Sequence record: PQ178821.1
Strand: one strand, 5' to 3'
DNA from: Escherichia phage BMA1
DNA length: 45,135 nt
Shown here: positions 2,113 through 41,962 of the stretch, in pieces
Layout: each line of letters begins with the position of its first letter
How positions within the stretch are numbered: the stretch's first letter is position 1
Notes under the pieces: generated by a model
The model's database searches: none
What the model was told of the DNA's origin: nothing
The model's input: only the letters and a program-made list of their open reading frames with translations
Position numbers and translations under genes: made by a program

Positions 2113-2403
2113 ATGGATAAGCTAAACGAGTGGCTATTCGCCCTGGCATGTCTGGCGGGTGGCTTCGTAGGCGCACGCATTCATGGTGAGGCTACGAAGG
2201 GGCCGCTAAACTTCGTTTTGTATGTTGTAGTTGGCTTCCTGTGTGCCATATTTGGCGCACCGGCTATCGCTGAGGGGGCTGGTTTGTCGGGTGAGCGCAC
2301 TGTCGCCGGTTTGGGGTTTGTAACCGCGATCTTCTGGATGCCAATCGCCGACCGGATCAGGGAGACTATTGCGTCGTTCCGACTTCCGGGGGGTGCAAAA
2401 TGA
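2113..2403 (+). CDS. putative holin (membrane protein, 96 aa)
   Basis: Multiple hydrophobic helices; immediately upstream of the lysozyme gene. Confidence 0.5.
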   Translation: MDKLNEWLFALACLAGGFVGARIHGEATKGPLNFVLYVVVGFLCAIFGAPAIAEGAGLSGERTVAGLGFVTAIFWMPIADRIRETIASFRLPGGAK

Positions 2404-2645
2404 TTATCTCCGTCCTGTTGTTTGTTATCATCGGGGCTTCGTCCCTGTTTAACGTGTATGCGCCGTCCGTCCGGGATGGCTTTTTCGGTAGGGTGCTGTA
2501 TCTGCTAACAGCAATGACCTGTATTGTCGGGCTGTTGCAAACAGGAGACGTATCTGATACCACCTGGACCGCGTTAATCTGGCTGTTTGCATTGCGCACC
2601 CTGCGTAATGCTGTTTTGAATGGGGTAAAACATGCGATTCAGTGA
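2400..2645 (+). CDS. membrane protein, holin/antiholin candidate (81 aa)
   Basis: Two hydrophobic segments; ATGA overlap with previous gene; overlaps endolysin start. Confidence 0.45.
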   Translation: MIISVLLFVIIGASSLFNVYAPSVRDGFFGRVLYLLTAMTCIVGLLQTGDVSDTTWTALIWLFALRTLRNAVLNGVKHAIQ

Positions 2646-3123
2646 TAACGGTCTACGATTTACGGCAGCATGGGAGGCTTTCAGCCCGGTGCCGTATTTC
2701 GCGACCAAGAAAGAGCAGGCCCGCGGCCTGTACACCTGGGGCTATGGGCATACTGGCACTAACCCGCCTCGAAGCATTACCCGCGCGGAAGCGCTGGAGC
2801 TACTCAAGCGAGATGTGGCGTATGCTGAAAACTGGGTGAACAAGTACGCACACCCGAGCATCAATCAGGCGCAATTCGACGCGCTGGTGGATCTGGTCAT
2901 CAATGCCGGTCCTGGTCCGATCATGCCGGACGACGTCGCCGGTGACTTCGACGATGCGGTCCGACTGGGAGACTGGGCGAAGGTCCGTGCTACTCTGCCA
3001 CAGTTCCGCAAGCAAGGCGGGGAAGTGCTGAAGGGGTTAGTCCGTCGATCAATCGGCAGACAGGCGTTGTTTGATGGTAAGCAGTGGGACGTTGCCGAGC
3101 GAATCGGTCGTAACGCGGTATAA
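2632..3123 (+). CDS. endolysin, T4-type lysozyme-like (163 aa)
   Basis: N-terminal E...YTWGYGHTG segment resembling the lysozyme catalytic region; position after holin candidates. Confidence 0.8.
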   Translation: MRFSDNGLRFTAAWEAFSPVPYFATKKEQARGLYTWGYGHTGTNPPRSITRAEALELLKRDVAYAENWVNKYAHPSINQAQFDALVDLVINAGPGPIMPDDVAGDFDDAVRLGDWAKVRATLPQFRKQGGEVLKGLVRRSIGRQALFDGKQWDVAERIGRNAV

Positions 3124-8335: not shown

Positions 8336-9422
8336 TCAATATATGGCGGATCGAATGATTCGCCGACACATCTTCACCCAGCGCCTGAGTAATGACCAGG
8401 CGCGAAGGGTGCTGTCCATGTGGGAGAAGTTCCGGCCTACATTACTGGGAAAGCTGACCGAGTTGCTTGATGGCAAATCGTCAATGAACAACAAGGCACT
8501 TTCCACCCTGCTAACGCAAATCGACAAGACCGTAAAAACGGAACTGCGCACCGAGTTTAAGGCGTTGGCTGAAAGCCTTCAGGAGTTTGCAGACACGGAG
8601 GCTGATTATCTCGCCGACACATTAACGGCAGCGATCCAGCCGGTGGTCGCCGTACCTGCGGTTGAGGTGGTGGGTGTTGTGACAGGCGCGCAGATTGCAG
8701 CGACTGCAATGAAAAACCCGTTCCAGGGAAACACCATGATGCAGTGGCCTGATTCACTTTCTGAGTGGACCAGGACGCAGATCGGTAACCAGGTGCGAGC
8801 GGGATTCATCCAGGGCAAGCCAACGATGGAAATTATCGCGGACGTGAGGCGCGCGCTAGGTGGTCGTAGTGCGCAAGCTATCTCGAGCGTTGTTAAGTCC
8901 GCAGTCAACCACTATGCGGCGACAGCCCGCGAATTAATGGTAAAAGCTAATGACGATATTCTCGAAGGTCGCCAATGGTTATCTACATTGGACACTCATA
9001 CTTCTCCCATGTGCCAGCTACGCGATCGCCTGTTTTATCCGGTTGATGTTACTCCCGACACCAAAGGAAAGCGCGGCGGGAAAGTGGTGGCTGGATCACA
9101 ATATGGCGCTGGTCCGGGCAAGTTGCATTATTGCTGCCGGTCGACGGAGACGTGGAAAGTCAAGGGCATGGAAGATTGGCCCAGTGGTAAGCGTCCGGCA
9201 CTGAAGGCTGACGCGGGTAGATTGCTGAGTGAGCAGGTAGACGCGCAGACTGATTTCTTCTCATGGGTGCAGCGCCAGCCGCGCCATATCCTGGAAGAAC
9301 TATACGGAGTGCAACGCGCCGACCAGATTATGCGCGGCGTGAAAGTGCCGAAGATGTTCACCGATTCAGGTGAACTGATGACTATCGCACAGCTTAAAAA
9401 CCGGGGGTTATGGCGTGATTAA
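8319..9422 (+). CDS. head morphogenesis protein (Mu F / SPP1 gp7-like minor head protein, 367 aa)
   Basis: Position after portal; conserved-looking HYCCRS segment. Confidence 0.75.
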   Translation: MAKTINQYMADRMIRRHIFTQRLSNDQARRVLSMWEKFRPTLLGKLTELLDGKSSMNNKALSTLLTQIDKTVKTELRTEFKALAESLQEFADTEADYLADTLTAAIQPVVAVPAVEVVGVVTGAQIAATAMKNPFQGNTMMQWPDSLSEWTRTQIGNQVRAGFIQGKPTMEIIADVRRALGGRSAQAISSVVKSAVNHYAATARELMVKANDDILEGRQWLSTLDTHTSPMCQLRDRLFYPVDVTPDTKGKRGGKVVAGSQYGAGPGKLHYCCRSTETWKVKGMEDWPSGKRPALKADAGRLLSEQVDAQTDFFSWVQRQPRHILEELYGVQRADQIMRGVKVPKMFTDSGELMTIAQLKNRGLWRD

Positions 9423-9744
9423 ATATGCAGCGATTGGACTGGTTATCGGTCTGGCGGTAGGATTCTGGCTAGGTGACTCCTATCGCGCTGGCGTAGTGGC
9501 GGAGGCGGCGCAAGAAGCGCAAGCCCAAGCCCAACGGCAGCAAACTAAAGTTGTTGAGCGCTCCGTGCAGGCCGAACAGGCCCGCGACGTAGAATACCGG
9601 ACTATCACGAAAGAGGTTGTTAAATATGTTACGCGCCCTAACCGCCCTGATTGTAGTTTTGATGCTGAGCGCGTGCGGATCAAGCAACGTGCCGTTGATG
9701 CCGCTAACGGAGTCGGCACTGCGACCGCCGTGCAAGTTCGATAG
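9415..9744 (+). CDS. i-spanin (Rz-like, 109 aa, GTG start)
   Basis: N-terminal TM helix (AAIGLVIGLAVGFWLG) followed by charged coiled-coil-like region; overlapped by lipoprotein ORF in another frame. Confidence 0.6.
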   Translation: MIKYAAIGLVIGLAVGFWLGDSYRAGVVAEAAQEAQAQAQRQQTKVVERSVQAEQARDVEYRTITKEVVKYVTRPNRPDCSFDAERVRIKQRAVDAANGVGTATAVQVR

Positions 9745-9856
9745 CCCGTCTGCAGACCCCGACGAGGATTTGATGATTGACGTGAAAAATATGGAATGCG
9801 GGGCGAAGCTAAGGGCGCAGGTGCTGGAGTTGCAGCAAATAATTAAGGGGCCGTAA
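9617..9856 (+). CDS. o-spanin (Rz1-like outer-membrane lipoprotein, 79 aa)
   Basis: Signal peptide with lipobox LSAC, Pro-rich mature part; starts inside the Rz-like ORF in a different frame and extends beyond it. Confidence 0.6.
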   Translation: MLNMLRALTALIVVLMLSACGSSNVPLMPLTESALRPPCKFDSPSADPDEDLMIDVKNMECGAKLRAQVLELQQIIKGP

Positions 9857-9868
9857 TGGCCCCTTTTT
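9847..9868. terminator. bidirectional terminator candidate between convergent genes
   Basis: GGGGCC gtaat GGCCCC stem with T-run on + side; sits between + spanin genes and - strand cassette. Confidence 0.6.
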
Positions 9869-9870
9869 CG

Positions 9871-10635
9871 TTAGCGCGGAATACCGCAGATTTCGTTTAA
9901 CGTCTTCACATCCAGCGCCACCGCCGTGGATTTGGGCTTGTCGGGGTATGGAATGAATTGTTCCACTTCAGGCCACGCCTTGATCAGCTTCTTATCGGTA
10001 TTGTGCATATCCAGCACGCCGGTAACAGTTAGTTTGAACGCGTCATACTTAGCACGCAACTCACGGCGGGCCTTGTCGTTACGGTCCAGGCGCTTACAGA
10101 AGTCATGATCTGCCGGTAAATCCACACGGCAGCGTGGCTTATAGATCGGCAGCGATTTTCCGTCCTCGTCCACTTCACACACTGAAGCCAACATAACTGT
10201 CTCGAACCCCGGAACGATATCGCCGAGATCAGGCGAGAGCTTATTCATATATTTCTCTTCCCAGTATCCGCGATGTACGCGGTATTGGCGACCGTCACCG
10301 CTCAAGGACAAGATGCGAACATTGCCGCCTGCGTTGATTTCAAAGGTGGCGTCGTAAACGCTGCCGATACCCTTCGGGCGATCTGTGTCATGGCGATATG
10401 TTGCCTCGTTGGTGTATACGCTGACGCTGTACATCTGCGACTGGTCGTCGCGGATTGCCTTGATATGCTCGCGGAGCGCTGCGAACGTGCGAATGCCTTC
10501 CGGCATACAGTCCAGCGTGATTGCGTACGCCAGGTCGCGAGAGTCCATCATGATTGTTTTGGCTTCGGTAGCGATTTCGTGGTCGCGCAGGATGTTAGCC
10601 AGGATCTGATTTTTAATGTCTTTCGTCAGTCTCAT
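9871..10635 (-). CDS. hypothetical protein (254 aa), antisense insert in head operon
   Basis: Long ORF on opposite strand to surrounding structural genes; no motif I can assign. Confidence 0.6.
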   Translation of the reverse strand: MRLTKDIKNQILANILRDHEIATEAKTIMMDSRDLAYAITLDCMPEGIRTFAALREHIKAIRDDQSQMYSVSVYTNEATYRHDTDRPKGIGSVYDATFEINAGGNVRILSLSGDGRQYRVHRGYWEEKYMNKLSPDLGDIVPGFETVMLASVCEVDEDGKSLPIYKPRCRVDLPADHDFCKRLDRNDKARRELRAKYDAFKLTVTGVLDMHNTDKKLIKAWPEVEQFIPYPDKPKSTAVALDVKTLNEICGIPR

Positions 10636-10674
10636 TTTTATGTCCTCATTTTAGGGGCTTTCGCCCCGATTGGT

Positions 10675-10989
10675 TTAGTTGAATTTGATGTTGCCACCGG
10701 TGGAAGTTAAGCGGGCACATACAGCTTCAACGGCATCGACGCACATGAAATCGTTAAAGGCTTCGACCAGGGCGTTTATGAAAGATGCCGGAACCAGGCC
10801 GCAAGCCGGATTATCGAATGTAGCGGAGTTGATCGCCGCTTTTGCCGCTTCAGAAGCATTCATGCTCTGGCACAGATTCAGCGCTTCCGCGTTACGCATT
10901 GCGTGAAAGGTAAAGGTATTCGCTACGGTAGCTTTATTGAAACGGGCCATTGCGGCGTCTACTGGAGTTGCTACGGTCATGTTAGTCAT
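10675..10989 (-). CDS. hypothetical protein (105 aa from ATG 10989)
   Basis: ORF upstream of the 254-aa gene on - strand, AAGGA RBS; intercistronic GGGGC-GAAA-GCCCC hairpin at 10652..10665. Confidence 0.5.
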   Translation of the reverse strand: MTNMTVATPVDAAMARFNKATVANTFTFHAMRNAEALNLCQSMNASEAAKAAINSATFDNPACGLVPASFINALVEAFNDFMCVDAVEAVCARLTSTGGNIKFN

Positions 10990-11017
10990 TTTGTTTTCCT
11001 TCATATCTCTGTTGGTG

Positions 11018-11041
11018 TGCAACCAATATACTGCAACCAAC
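11018..11041 (-). promoter_or_regulatory. Two direct ATTGGTTGC-type motifs (reverse orientation) upstream of - strand cassette
   Basis: TGCAACCAAT at 11018..11027 and TGCAACCAAC at 11032..11041. Confidence 0.4.
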
Positions 11042-11143
11042 ATACGCAACGCAAGCGAATTTTGCGATTATTTTTATCGCTGATAATATTAAGGCGTGAA
11101 GTCAAGCGGGTGGCCCGCTTTGCCACAATCCCAGGGGGATAGC

Positions 11144-13098: not shown

Positions 13099-13600
13099 AT
13101 GTNATGGCGACCCGCAAACCTTTGTTATTTATGCCGCTGCGCGAGGCGTTGAAATTACGCCGAGCGACGCAACGCGACACCTTACTATCGTTAATGACTT
13201 CCTTAACGGCATAGACTGGATCGGCGAACAAGCAGACCCGACCGGAATTGACGCATGGCCTCGCGTCAACTACCCGTCAGACGGTAAGCCGGTGCGAAAC
13301 ACGCTTACTGAAGATTTGGCAGTAGTTCCCGCGGGGCAGATTGTAGACTTCGCATCAATCCCTGTCGCCGTTGAGCAAGCCGTTTACCGGCTGGCAATGT
13401 TGGTGGCGGACGAGGTCGATATTTCTCCTGTTGGCAGTGGTAAGGAGACTATCCGCGAAACTGTTGGCCCGATCACGATGGAATATGACCCTGCGACGAT
13501 TGGTAGCGGTGTCTCGTTCCCGTGGTGGGATGGCTTGCTGGGCCACTGGATTGACTCCGACGGCAACGCAGCGGGTAATTTTGACGTATTCCGGGGGTGA
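13099..13600 (+). CDS. head-tail connector / head completion protein candidate, reading frame broken by ambiguous base at 13103
   Basis: AGGAG RBS and ATG 13099; long ORF continues in +1 frame to 13600; removing the N at 13103 joins them into one ~166-aa ORF. Confidence 0.45.
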
Positions 13601-26854: not shown

Positions 26855-27073
26855 TTATTTGCAGGTTGTGCTTTTGAAGTGGTCCACTGACACATACTGG
26901 AAGTTGAACGGGTATCCCGCCCTAAGCATTTTGTGTCCGCTAAAATCGGCGACCCCAAACACGGGGACTGAGTAATCCATGCCGCTATTCTGGTATGTCG
27001 CGTCGCAGACTTTAGCTGGCATGTTGGCACAACCGGACAAAAGAACCGCACAAATCATAATTAAAGTTTTCAT
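26855..27073 (-). CDS. small lipoprotein (72 aa), superinfection-exclusion candidate
   Basis: AGGAGA RBS, signal peptide with lipobox LLSGC; antisense between J-like and tail fiber genes. Confidence 0.6.
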   Translation of the reverse strand: MKTLIMICAVLLSGCANMPAKVCDATYQNSGMDYSVPVFGVADFSGHKMLRAGYPFNFQYVSVDHFKSTTCK

Positions 27074-27127: not shown

Positions 27128-27137
27128 TGCAACCAAT
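27128..27137 (-). promoter_or_regulatory. ATTGGTTGCA motif (reverse orientation) upstream of lipoprotein gene
   Basis: TGCAACCAAT on + strand, 55 nt upstream of the - strand ATG. Confidence 0.35.
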
Positions 27138-27153
27138 TTAAGAGGATTTAGCT

Positions 27154-29550: not shown

Positions 29551-30114
29551 TTATTTCAGTGCGCTACGTACCAGTGTTTTTTCCATGTTACGGAAATCTT
29601 CCGGCGTCATGAGGATTTTGGACCCATCTTCGCCGGTGAGCAAGACCATAGGCTGGACTTCTTGGTCTGCAATGCCGAAATTGGCGGCTTTTACAGTCTT
29701 ACCCACCGATGCAGAAGGATTCCACGTCCCCGCGGTGGCGATGGGCCAACCTTTAAGGCTGTCGTATTGCGCTGCCGTTGTATCGACCTGAATCTCGTCG
29801 TGTACGGTCATGTACGACTCGCCCAGCAGGGCGGAGTACGCTACCAGGTCGACGATATTGTCTTCCTGGTGCTTACGGTGCTGGCGCACCAGCTTCAGGC
29901 AGATCAAGAAGGTCCAGGCTTCTTGCTCGGTCAGGTCGCGACCGGTAAGCGCGTTAAACACGGCAGCGATTTGCTTAGCGCTGCGTTCCTCTTTCGCGTT
30001 GTCATAGCCATTTTCTTTCCCGCGCTGTTCCATAGTGGTGGCGGCGTTTTTACAGTATTCGTATGCTTTCACAGTATTACCTTTTTTAGTGAGGGGGCTG
30101 TATTGCCCCGACAC
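29551..30114 (-). CDS. hypothetical protein (187 aa, GTG start; start uncertain)
   Basis: Long ORF; palindromic motif immediately upstream. Confidence 0.5.
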   Translation of the reverse strand: MSGQYSPLTKKGNTVKAYEYCKNAATTMEQRGKENGYDNAKEERSAKQIAAVFNALTGRDLTEQEAWTFLICLKLVRQHRKHQEDNIVDLVAYSALLGESYMTVHDEIQVDTTAAQYDSLKGWPIATAGTWNPSASVGKTVKAANFGIADQEVQPMVLLTGEDGSKILMTPEDFRNMEKTLVRSALK

Positions 30115-30125
30115 GTTTACTATAG

Positions 30126-30147
30126 TGCAACCAACCTATTGGTTGCA
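30126..30147. promoter_or_regulatory. inverted repeat TGCAACCAA-ccta-TTGGTTGCA (operator-like palindrome)
   Basis: 9-bp arms, 4-bp spacer; overlaps stop of upstream gene and precedes start of downstream gene. Confidence 0.45.
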
Positions 30148-31798: not shown

Positions 31799-31825
31799 TG
31801 CAACCAATAGGATTATGCAACCAAT
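31799..31825 (-). promoter_or_regulatory. Two direct ATTGGTTGCA motifs (reverse orientation), 17 bp apart
   Basis: TGCAACCAAT at 31799..31808 and 31816..31825, upstream of - strand gene starting at 31744. Confidence 0.4.
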
Positions 31826-32149
31826 TTACGAATAAAAATTTGGGTCGCGCGCTACGTCTACCAGATACAGATTGCTGATCCGGTTGCCGTAGTGCCCTGG
31901 CGTGCGCTGGCGGCATACAACGGCGAAGCCTGGGGGGATTGTATTGCCCGTCTCAATAATCCACGCCACGCGTGCGCCAGACAGCGTCTTGCCGTTGTAT
32001 TCGATACGTGTTCCGCCATCGGCAGTGTTAAGGTTGCCAATCTTGCAGCCTGTGGACTTCAGGCGGATGACGCCGGTCTTACTGTCGTAGGAAAAAAGCT
32101 GATTGGTCATTGCCACTGAAAAGTCGATGGCGTCGAATGTAGTATTCAT
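31826..32149 (-). CDS. small protein with degenerate HNH/NUMOD-like pattern (107 aa)
   Basis: ARVAWIIETGN ... NRISNLYLV resembles the HNH_3 core but lacks the expected His; ATGA overlap with upstream gene. Confidence 0.35.
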   Translation of the reverse strand: MNTTFDAIDFSVAMTNQLFSYDSKTGVIRLKSTGCKIGNLNTADGGTRIEYNGKTLSGARVAWIIETGNTIPPGFAVVCRQRTPGHYGNRISNLYLVDVARDPNFYS

Positions 32150-34535: not shown

Positions 34536-34709
34536 TTATTTTTGTTCCGCACGGTAGCGGCGCTGCCGTTCGCGCTCTTTCTTATTGCGGCACGATTTGC
34601 ACTCGGCCCGATACCCGTCGGGGCTACGCGCCGTCTTACCGGTGTACTTGTGGAACTGGGATAGCGGTTTAACGCAACCGCAATTACTGCAGCGTTTCTC
34701 TTCAATCAT
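34536..34709 (-). CDS. small zinc-ribbon-like protein (57 aa)
   Basis: CSNCGC ... CKSCRN Cys pairs; GAGGA RBS. Confidence 0.45.
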   Translation of the reverse strand: MIEEKRCSNCGCVKPLSQFHKYTGKTARSPDGYRAECKSCRNKKERERQRRYRAEQK

Positions 34710-34768: not shown

Positions 34769-35338
34769 NACAATAAATCNCNGTCGGCTATGTTGTCGAT
34801 GACGGCCGTAATATTCAACAAGCAACTCAACCACATCGTAGTTAACACAAAACACGTTAGCGTCGCTCTCCAGCGCGGCTATGCTGTCATTTTCTGATCC
34901 TGTTCCGACTACAACCACCAAGGCGGGCACTCGCCATTATTCTTCCTCCGGGGGCNAACGGCAGCGGGTAACTCATGCCAGCAATAAACCACACGCGATC
35001 GCCCGGTTTACATTCGCCCAGCTTGGTGAGCCGGTAATGTTCTTTCATCGTCATGTCTCCCAAAAATGGCGGGACAAGCCCGCCGTATTTATTATTTATT
35101 ATTTTTGTTCCGCACGGTAGCGGCGCTGCCGTTCGCGCTCTTTCTTATTGCGGCACGATTTGCACTCGGCCCGATACCCNGTCGGGGCTACGCGCCGTCT
35201 TACCGGTGTACTTGTGGAACTGGGATAGCGGTTTAACGCAACCGCAATTACTGCAGCGTTTCTCTTCAATCATTTCTAAAATCCTCGTTAGTGCTAACCT
35301 GCTCACTATACTGTTAAGCGACCAATTCAGCAACCAAT
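34769..35338. repeat. low-quality chimeric duplicate of 33.9-34.0 kb and 34.39-34.77 kb, probable assembly artifact
   Basis: Contains ambiguous bases at 34769, 34780, 34782, 34956, 35180; near-identical copies of the 34267 and 34536 genes with scattered mismatches. Confidence 0.6.
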
Positions 35339-41748: not shown

Positions 41749-41952
41749 GGTATATCTCCGATTGGTTAAGTTTAGGTGTCGGCAGTTAACTTCGTCGGTG
41801 GCCTTAACATATTGCCCGGTTGCGCGTTCTCCCGTTCGGGTAGTGGACCGGGTTATATAATCACGGTTGGGAATCCTGACACTTCGATCCGGCCCCTGCG
41901 TTGCCCCTCTCCAGTTTGCGTCCTGCATCCTGTCGACGGGGTNGAATAATAG

Positions 41953-41962
41953 ATTGGTTGCA
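41953..41962 (+). promoter_or_regulatory. ATTGGTTGCA motif in divergent promoter region
   Basis: Between divergent operons (41749..42151). Confidence 0.35.

Follow-up and report, generated by a model that had tools for sequence, protein, structure and literature searches.

We describe a two-gene operon of Escherichia phage BMA1 that lies antisense among the phage's structural genes. The window, meaning the whole stretch of BMA1 DNA analyzed here (45,135 nucleotides; record PQ178821.1), is a genome of the genus Dhillonvirus, the HK578-like siphophages, and its length is about that of one genome. The operon comprises nmad5 (9871..10635, minus strand), encoding a 254-aa protein of the Nmad5 family, and a second minus-strand gene (10675..10989), encoding a 104-aa ORFan, in a position that relatives fill with different genes or leave empty. 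We call this position the slot. Our interpretation, to which we assign a probability of roughly 0.55, is that the locus is a dispensable accessory operon of Dhillonviruses, apparently with its own transcription, that is non-structural and serves interactions with the host or its defenses, and that Nmad5 acts as a non-enzymatic binding protein. Specifically, the operon would run from a divergent promoter region containing two 14-bp elements, through a slot for one gene and nmad5, to a terminator shared with the neighboring o-spanin gene. The slot gene and nmad5 would be separate cargo, not a pair.

The surrounding genes are all on the plus strand. Terminase, portal, head morphogenesis, i-spanin, and o-spanin genes precede the minus-strand pair, and scaffold, major capsid, connector, and tail genes follow it. 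Open reading frames (ORFs) confirm the two minus-strand genes of the original prediction, including their coordinates; the length of 105 aa that it gave for the smaller product had counted the stop codon. The prediction took the two genes for one accessory cassette inserted into a structural operon, a candidate for an undescribed function. The accessory character stands: the locus is non-structural, dispensable, equipped with its own signals, and linked to defense by published work (PMC11846954). A sporadic insert it is not, given that nmad5 occupies the same position in 14 of 14 loci, nor do the two genes form one functional cassette, as the smaller gene travels independently and is only one of five or more alternatives for the slot. 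In the comparison of related phages that the prediction had proposed, nmad5 is conserved in position and the smaller gene is variable. Likewise, "undescribed" fits the 104-aa ORFan and the biochemistry of Nmad5, but not the nmad5 gene, which was tested against the Tmn defense system in 2025 (PMC11846954).

Nmad5 Is Conserved in Position and Unevenly Constrained

The 254-aa protein, for which the original prediction had found no family, matches Pfam PF18757, Nmad5 ("nucleotide modification associated domain 5"), with E=1.8e-60 and 204.9 bits. The gathering cut-off of that family is 27 bits, and residues 1-253 align to the entire model (1-206 of 206). The protein also matches phrog_1965, and alignments and an AlphaFold2 (AF2) model complete the description of the gene. 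In an alignment spanning the family, including members from HK542, SN1, Vibrio, and Hungariovirus, the invariant residues are R2, L217, W221, P222, L246, N247, and P253, and the BMA1 protein carries all of the family-wide motifs (N-terminal R-L, T213, L217, W221-P222, L246-N247, P253). Residue 216, a lysine in BMA1, is basic (K or R) in 10 of 13 diverse members.

A 2.1-kb region containing the operon matched 158 phage records, nearly all of them Escherichia or Shigella Dhillonviruses; the best matches, vB_EcoS_011D5 and EC115, are 97.6% identical to BMA1. Full-length nmad5 is present in 148 phage records, and in every one of the 14 intact Dhillonvirus loci examined it lies antisense between the o-spanin and scaffold genes. 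Together these counts mark nmad5 as a near-core gene of the genus. The gene is under purifying selection, with an overall ratio of nonsynonymous to synonymous substitution rates (dN/dS) of 0.116. This value is 2-3 times more relaxed than those of the portal (0.043), scaffold (0.043), and capsid (0.063) genes. Constraint is unevenly distributed along the protein. A conserved helical core consists of residues 1-45 and 176-230, the latter holding K216, and the middle, residues 46-175, is variable. Correspondingly, dN/dS is 0.25 for residues 46-90, 0.018 for residues 176-230, and 0.031 for residues 231-254, where the C-terminal tail, TAVALDVKTLNEICGIPR, is near-invariant. The notion is that the N- and C-terminal thirds form a core around a fast-evolving middle insert, and that the protein probably binds a host or immune component.

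Nature has also removed the gene. Phage Teewinot has a clean deletion of approximately codons 34-248 of nmad5 and keeps both the promoter region and the terminator. Two metagenomic sequences add to the independent truncations: P0042 has lost an internal segment, and P0055 encodes an 87-aa protein in which residues 1-45 of the 104-aa protein are followed in frame by the final 42 of Nmad5. The fusion, TDKKLIAAWPEVEQFIPYPDKPKSTAVALDVKTLNEICGIPR, retains exactly the most conserved Nmad5 module, K216 included. This arrangement may be chance, or it may hint at a self-sufficient C-terminal module. We did not rely on the truncated nmad5 of P-GXEC-L2P5, an 88-kb "Dhillonvirus" record with fragmented genes and the look of a poor assembly.

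A Slot with Exchangeable Genes

Alignment of the variants from the scaffold start to the nmad5 start reveals at least five states of the slot. It is empty in SM_S22 and in loci L012-L015, where the promoter region is joined straight to the nmad5 ribosome-binding site (RBS). It holds a 53-aa ORF in Dru_SM5 and EK99P-1, the 104-aa ORF in BMA1, SSL-2009a, YD-2008.s, and Bas83, a 135-aa ORF in HK578 and loci L008 and L010, and a 172-aa ORF in EP23. The upstream promoter and motif region is common to all variants. At the other end, the 104-, 135-, and 172-aa inserts have the same 3' boundary, AACTAAACCAAWCGGGGCGAAAGCCCC, which is the GC hairpin ahead of nmad5 and is missing from the empty-slot alleles. 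EP23 retains, behind its own insert, the 3'-terminal codons of the 104-aa allele, ATCAAATTCAACTAA, a footprint of gene replacement.

Several starts are available to the slot ORF of BMA1, including a 124-aa reading from TTG and a 109-aa reading from an ATG at 11004. The ATG at 10989 is the best, because a GAAGGA Shine-Dalgarno sequence lies 7 nt upstream of it and the 135-aa allele of related phages reuses this same RBS, in a different frame. That the 104-aa ORF is a real gene follows from full-length homologs in unrelated phages, specifically, a Pantoea Dibbivirus (64% identity) and Ackermannviridae phages (57-61%), where it is surrounded by arrays of small hypothetical genes and nmad5 is not in the vicinity. 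Of the 71 phage records with the gene, about 60 are Dhillonviruses, compared with about 150 records for nmad5. Thus, more than half of the Dhillonvirus records have nmad5 without it, which is not the co-inheritance of a two-gene system. Divergence tells the same story. The 104-aa gene is at least 99% identical in 38 records, and most nmad5 copies are 80-95% identical; the lesser divergence of the former points to separate histories.

The original prediction could place the 104-aa protein in no family, and that result holds: it has no Pfam, NCBIfam, PADLOC, or PDB-profile match and belongs only to phrog_24635, which is without annotation. Its relatives form 10 clusters at 90% identity in a set of 5.8 billion proteins and 4 representatives at 50% identity among 1.84 billion, and an exhaustive profile search added only 2-3 more. 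The protein is acidic (isoelectric point 5.1) and predicted to be all-helical, with invariant Cys63, Cys83, and Cys91 and a DNPACGLVP motif. It is probably a small host- or defense-interaction factor that was horizontally acquired.

Other occupants are also shared widely. The 135-aa allele exists in Serratia and Erwinia siphophages, and the 172-aa allele in 285 records across many genera, among them Kagunavirus, Salmonella, Klebsiella, and other phages. The latter (EP23; L007, 5353-5919) belongs to phrog_3007 and bears a weak likeness to one beta-clamp (DnaN) domain, including an NDVRYYLNGVFFD...DGHRL motif and a Pfam DNA_pol3_beta_2 match at E=7e-4, which is below the cut-off. A protein of this kind, with only one clamp-like domain, could disturb the function of the host clamp or of proteins that interact with it.

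The locus thereby displays what is expected of morons and hot spots: it is dispensable and polymorphic among close relatives, as judged by five slot states, natural deletions, and a published viable deletion, and its orientation is opposite, its alleles are horizontally shared, and it carries a terminator and a putative promoter region of its own. It differs from the usual moron in that a conserved anchor, nmad5, shares the transcription unit with the slot, and in that replacement occurs between fixed boundaries, an RBS-like repeat marking the 5' end and the GC hairpin the 3' end. To judge from the literature searched, the fixed-boundary slot and its allele series are new, as are the uneven selection on Nmad5 and the evidence, given below, against a DNA-modification role in this clade.

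Nmad5 and the Tmn Defense System

A concrete link between nmad5 and bacterial defense exists in related Dhillonviruses, for which Yamashita et al. (2025, PMC11846954) examined how deletion and point mutants of the gene respond to Tmn. Mutant phages that escaped Tmn had independently gained the same change, called K216E in SM_A8 and K296E in SM_S22 (PMC11846954). Reverting the change restored sensitivity to Tmn, and engineering it into the phage conferred resistance (PMC11846954). A phage deleted for nmad5 was viable and still Tmn-sensitive, and attempts to clone nmad5 failed, apparently owing to toxicity (PMC11846954). The two numberings arise because nmad5 of SM_S22 (CDS0006, 1506-2510) is annotated as an over-long 334-aa gene that crosses the promoter region and extends into the scaffold gene; read from the conserved start, the protein has 254 aa and the residue is K216. 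The correspondence with BMA1 is close. SM_S22 CDS6 and SM_A8 CDS7 (PMC11846954) have the same position and length as BMA1 nmad5, and the BMA1 protein is 87-88% identical to those of SM_S22 and Dru_SM5, with K215-K216 in the same HNTDKKLIKAWPE context. The published experiments concern SM_S22 and SM_A8, and SM_S22 differs from BMA1 in having an empty slot in place of the 104-aa gene.

How can a point mutant escape Tmn when a clean deletion does not? The failure of the deletion to give escape means that Nmad5 is not a simple trigger of Tmn. We suggest that wild-type Nmad5 engages Tmn or a process relevant to it, and that K216E is an altered-function allele, not a loss of function. We favor altered function because K216E reverses the charge at a conserved basic position of the motif under the strongest constraint, T-x-x-K-L-x-x-x-W-P-E, and arose identically in two phages, and an altered-function allele would explain why the point mutant escapes and the deletion does not. 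The mutant protein may engage Tmn non-productively, or it may block another trigger.

A precedent for such interactions comes from phage T2. Tmn is a decameric membrane P-loop NTPase whose solenoid arms bind T2 RIIB, whereupon Mg2+ is exported and the cytoplasm collapses; RIIB-D219S shows that binding is separable from activation of Tmn (2026 preprint, PMC13001434). RIIB resembles Nmad5 in that Tmn-escape mutations map to it and a single missense change can shift the outcome (PMC13001434). The two proteins differ in that nonsense mutations in rIIB yield escape and deletion of nmad5 does not, they have no sequence relationship, and binding of Nmad5 to Tmn is putative.

A bolder reading holds the nmad5 operon to be a counter-defense hot spot. 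Specifically, Nmad5 would engage solenoid sensors such as Tmn as a decoy, a modulator, or a failed inhibitor, with specificity residing in its middle, and the slot would rotate anti-defense proteins, namely, the 104-, 53-, and 135-aa ORFans and the beta-clamp look-alike, each directed against a different host system. We regard this possibility as tentative and rather unlikely. Neither sequence nor structure comparison revealed homology to a characterized anti-defense protein. Known candidates were also considered and set aside as components of the locus: the anti-Tmn gene (ORF35 of SM_S22) lies outside it, elsewhere in the genome; Ksap1, the 74-aa trigger of Avs2 from SECphi18, is not the small gene and is encoded elsewhere, between methyltransferase and phosphatase genes; and the SECphi18 escapers presented in the main text of the Stokar-Avihail screen map to SSB and DNA polymerase genes.

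Is Nmad5 a DNA-Modifying Enzyme?

The family name suggests that Nmad5 modifies DNA bases, as an enzyme or an accessory subunit, and that Tmn senses or is affected by the modification, which is the reading advanced with the Tmn data (PMC11846954). The name derives from association with nucleotide-modifying genes. In SN1/M6-like Yuaviruses, the Nmad5 gene lies between those for aGPT-Pplase1 and a pyrimidine hydroxymethylase, and Dhillonviruses do encode DNA methyltransferases. The SN1 protein is a true relative (tblastn match, E=8e-11), with the same N-terminal R-L-T/S helix and C-terminal T-x-x-K-L-x-x-x-W-P-E ... L-N-x-x-x-G-L-P. It differs in length (186 aa) and in setting: it is embedded among hypermodification genes, whereas the BMA1 protein has no such partners and a longer, different middle.

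The remaining evidence makes an enzymatic role for the BMA1 protein doubtful. When seven SN1 hypermodification enzymes were compared with the window by tblastn, nothing scored better than E=0.097; SN1 Nmad5 alone matched. The companions that define a hypermodification cluster (5-hydroxymethyl-pyrimidine synthase, P-loop kinase, and aGPT-Pplase) are thus found neither beside nmad5 nor elsewhere in this genome, and the curated annotation of the relative Bas83 lists methyltransferases only and no hypermodification genes. The same holds for most loci of the family. Among 80 Nmad5 loci from IMG/VR, only 4 have SN1-type enzymes, the full cluster, within 8 kb. The other 76 comprise 45 lambdoid early-left (pL) loci, 11 from Dhillonviruses, 2 Hungariovirus-like loci, and 18 others. 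In 32 of the 34 lambdoid loci in which N could be found, the Nmad5 gene is directly downstream of N. Dhillonviruses are, moreover, appreciably sensitive to restriction-modification systems in the BASEL studies (PMC11990801), and deletion of nmad5 leaves Tmn sensitivity unchanged (PMC11846954).

Structure prediction likewise gives no sign of an enzyme. The AF2 model of Nmad5 (predicted local distance difference test score, pLDDT, 77; predicted template-modeling score, pTM, 0.74) is confident for the N-terminal helices (residues 5-62) and over residues 178-227, where short helices come after a long C-terminal one. Its beta-rich middle is modeled with less confidence, and its C-terminal tail is flexible yet nearly invariant in sequence. 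Against the PDB, the best Foldseek match had an E of 5.9 and no solved structure resembled the model; in BFVD only other Nmad5 proteins were recovered, and a sequence-profile search of the PDB found nothing. We detected no enzyme fold and no strictly conserved catalytic residues. Given the genomic contexts of the family, the lack of partner enzymes and of an enzyme fold, the sensitivity to restriction-modification, and the viable deletion, we favor a non-enzymatic, binding accessory protein. Nothing supports a DNA-modifying role for nmad5 here, and it is probably not a DNA-modification gene.

The lambdoid members invite comparison. They are proteins of about 207 aa, including HK542 gp33 (L026, 3653-4276), the product of L030 3192-3815, and proteins of PhiR12_2_star and Stx phages, with approximately 33% identity to the BMA1 protein over the C-terminal 100 residues. 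Like Dhillonvirus nmad5, they appear to be non-essential accessory genes in a regulated operon; unlike it, they belong to temperate phages and lie in the pL operon after N, whereas the Dhillonvirus gene stands alone, antisense, in the late region. In many Stx-phage records, the Nmad5-family gene carries no annotation at all.

Signals That Bound the Operon

Two folded signals of the original prediction bear up: both the intercistronic hairpin and the bidirectional terminator fold better than shuffled sequence, and a terminator scan calls the latter on both strands. The terminator (9845..9865; 9845..9870 as a part of the operon) is a AAGGGGCC-GTAAT-GGCCCCTT hairpin common to the convergent o-spanin (plus strand) and nmad5 (minus strand) genes, with z scores against shuffled sequence of -2.9 on the plus strand and -2.3 on the minus strand. 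The o-spanin TAA stop falls within its loop, and 5 nt separate the stem base from the nmad5 stop. The intercistronic spacer (10636..10674, minus strand) contains the GC hairpin GGGGC-TTTC-GCCCC at 10654..10667 (folding free energy -11.4 kcal/mol, z -2.9) and the nmad5 RBS, GAGGAC, at 10642..10647. The sense strand lacks a U-run after this hairpin, which is therefore not an intrinsic terminator for the cassette. A comparable arrangement recurs elsewhere in the window: GC-rich hairpins GGGGCAATACAGCCCC (30090-30111) and GGGGCGAAAGCCCC (10654-10667) both lie just upstream of minus-strand RBSs without U-tracts. They may be mRNA processing or stabilizing elements, or recombination boundaries.

Between the slot gene and the scaffold gene lies a divergent regulatory region (10990..11143), nearly invariant in an alignment of six slot variants. 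Because the terminator at 9845 is also called on the plus strand, transcription of the scaffold and capsid genes would have to restart within 10990..11143. A sigma-70 consensus scan of the region upstream of the cassette found no promoter. By eye, and below the threshold of that scan, the best minus-strand candidate is TTGCGT-N18-TATATT (-35 at 11054..11049, -10 at 11030..11025), with 8 of 12 consensus matches, and a putative plus-strand scaffold promoter reads TTGCGA (11062..11067), N16, TAATAT (11084..11089). We infer both the identity of these promoters and their timing. Regarding autonomy, then, the terminator and the antisense orientation are confirmed, and the promoter amounts to a sub-threshold match together with a conserved motif.

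That motif is the pair which the original prediction had assigned to the cassette. It is present, as a tandem 14-bp repeat, TGCAACCAAYATAC, at 11018..11045 (plus strand), whose copies read TGCAACCAATATAC and TGCAACCAACATAC and which coincides in part with the putative minus-strand promoter, at its spacer and -10. The element also occurs outside the cassette. With up to 2 mismatches, the 14-bp element has 7 matches genome-wide, compared with 0.38 expected. Its 9-bp core, TGCAACCAA, has 10 copies (at 67-80, 777, 11018-11045, 27128-27141, 30126-30147, 31799-31829, and 41949-41962), which lie between likely genes (about half were inspected), often as tandem or inverted pairs. The copy at 41949 occupies the spacer of a near-consensus promoter, TTGACA-N18-TATTAT, and that at 27128 sits ahead of another antisense moron gene. 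The element is probably an operator or promoter-class element for some regulator.

That second antisense gene (26855-27073, minus strand) also falls within the structural region, just upstream of the tail-fiber gene, and encodes a 72-aa protein that begins MKTLIMICAVLLSGC, a lipoprotein signal with a lipobox. By virtue of the lipobox, it is perhaps a lipoprotein that blocks the receptor and thereby excludes superinfecting phages. Its match to the gene that holds this position in Bas83 is confined to the first 16 residues, which makes this a variable slot as well.

Points Against and Remaining Alternatives

Several observations weigh against the accessory, non-enzymatic interpretation. The promoter assignment is weak, with no consensus match. 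The negative result for an enzyme fold comes from a medium-confidence model with low-confidence loops at residues 68-78 and 117-127, and an A-D-H motif at 175-177, fairly well though not strictly conserved, could be catalytic. In the SN1/M6 group, Nmad5 does reside within thymidine-hypermodification clusters, and the authors of the Tmn study prefer a DNA-modification explanation (PMC11846954). Binding of Nmad5 to Tmn or to a host protein is itself inferred. Finally, for the 104-aa protein, the AF2 model (pLDDT 48, from an alignment of 10 sequences) is unusable.

A different proposal is that the operon is an exclusion or defense module in which Nmad5, the slot gene, or both block competing phages or act as an abortive-infection-type toxin. 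The moron-like layout, with its own terminator and a putative promoter region, would suit such a function, as would the toxicity reported for cloned nmad5 (PMC11846954). The lambda post-N region, moreover, where lambdoid family members reside, is a typical home of exclusion and restriction-alleviation genes. The 14-bp element likewise precedes the antisense lipoprotein gene beside the tail-fiber gene, a typical receptor-blocking spot. We nonetheless judge the proposal unlikely: PADLOC found no matches, the cited studies treat Dhillonviruses as virulent, for which long-term exclusion is less obviously useful, and the sole published phenotype concerns the phage's own sensitivity to defense, not protection of the host.

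An obligate pair, with the 104-aa protein controlling a toxic Nmad5 as an antidote would, is a natural thought for adjacent, apparently co-transcribed genes on one strand, one of them reportedly toxic. It is very improbable. The 104-aa gene accompanies nmad5 in only about 60 of about 150 nmad5-bearing Dhillonvirus records, four other slot states exist, and the gene occurs without nmad5 in the Pantoea Dibbivirus and Ackermannviridae and has diverged unequally. Most tellingly, the slot is empty in SM_S22, the very source of the reportedly toxic nmad5. We take these independent distributions and the empty slot of SM_S22 to largely rule out the pair. A head-morphogenesis or other structural role is scarcely credible despite the location between head-morphogenesis/spanin and scaffold/capsid genes and the genus-wide conservation of nmad5 there: the operon is oppositely oriented with its own terminator, the deletion mutant is viable and natural deletions exist, relatives in other phages are found in early operons, and proteomics of EE09 virion lysates, which detected 24 phage proteins, found none of Nmad5 size (254 aa, 29 kDa; PMC10673088).

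Neighboring Features of the Genome

The i- and o-spanin genes (9415-9856) end the head-morphogenesis operon and lie about 6 kb from the lysis genes at 2113-3123, which comprise two holin genes and an endolysin gene; terminase and portal genes separate the two groups. The window contains 8 ambiguous bases (N), at 13103, 34769, 34780, 34782, 34956, 35180, 41057, and 41943. Several cluster at 34.7-35.2 kb, where two copies of a Lar-like restriction-alleviation gene are situated (34542-34709 and approximately 35105-35273).

Implications

Dhillonviruses are common, easily isolated coliphages that are used in research on defense systems and considered for therapy. The slot is of practical use. It supplies a short list of uncharacterized proteins (53, 104, 135, and 172 aa) as candidates for anti-defense or host-takeover functions, and it is a tolerated insertion site for engineered payloads. 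The operon is ordinary in kind, and neither the slot as such a site nor the reading of nmad5 that follows is of a surprising kind. As for the biology of the genus, if nmad5 is, as is probable, not a DNA-modification gene, then the question of why K216E and deletion of nmad5 differ in their consequences for Tmn shifts from modified DNA to protein-protein interaction.

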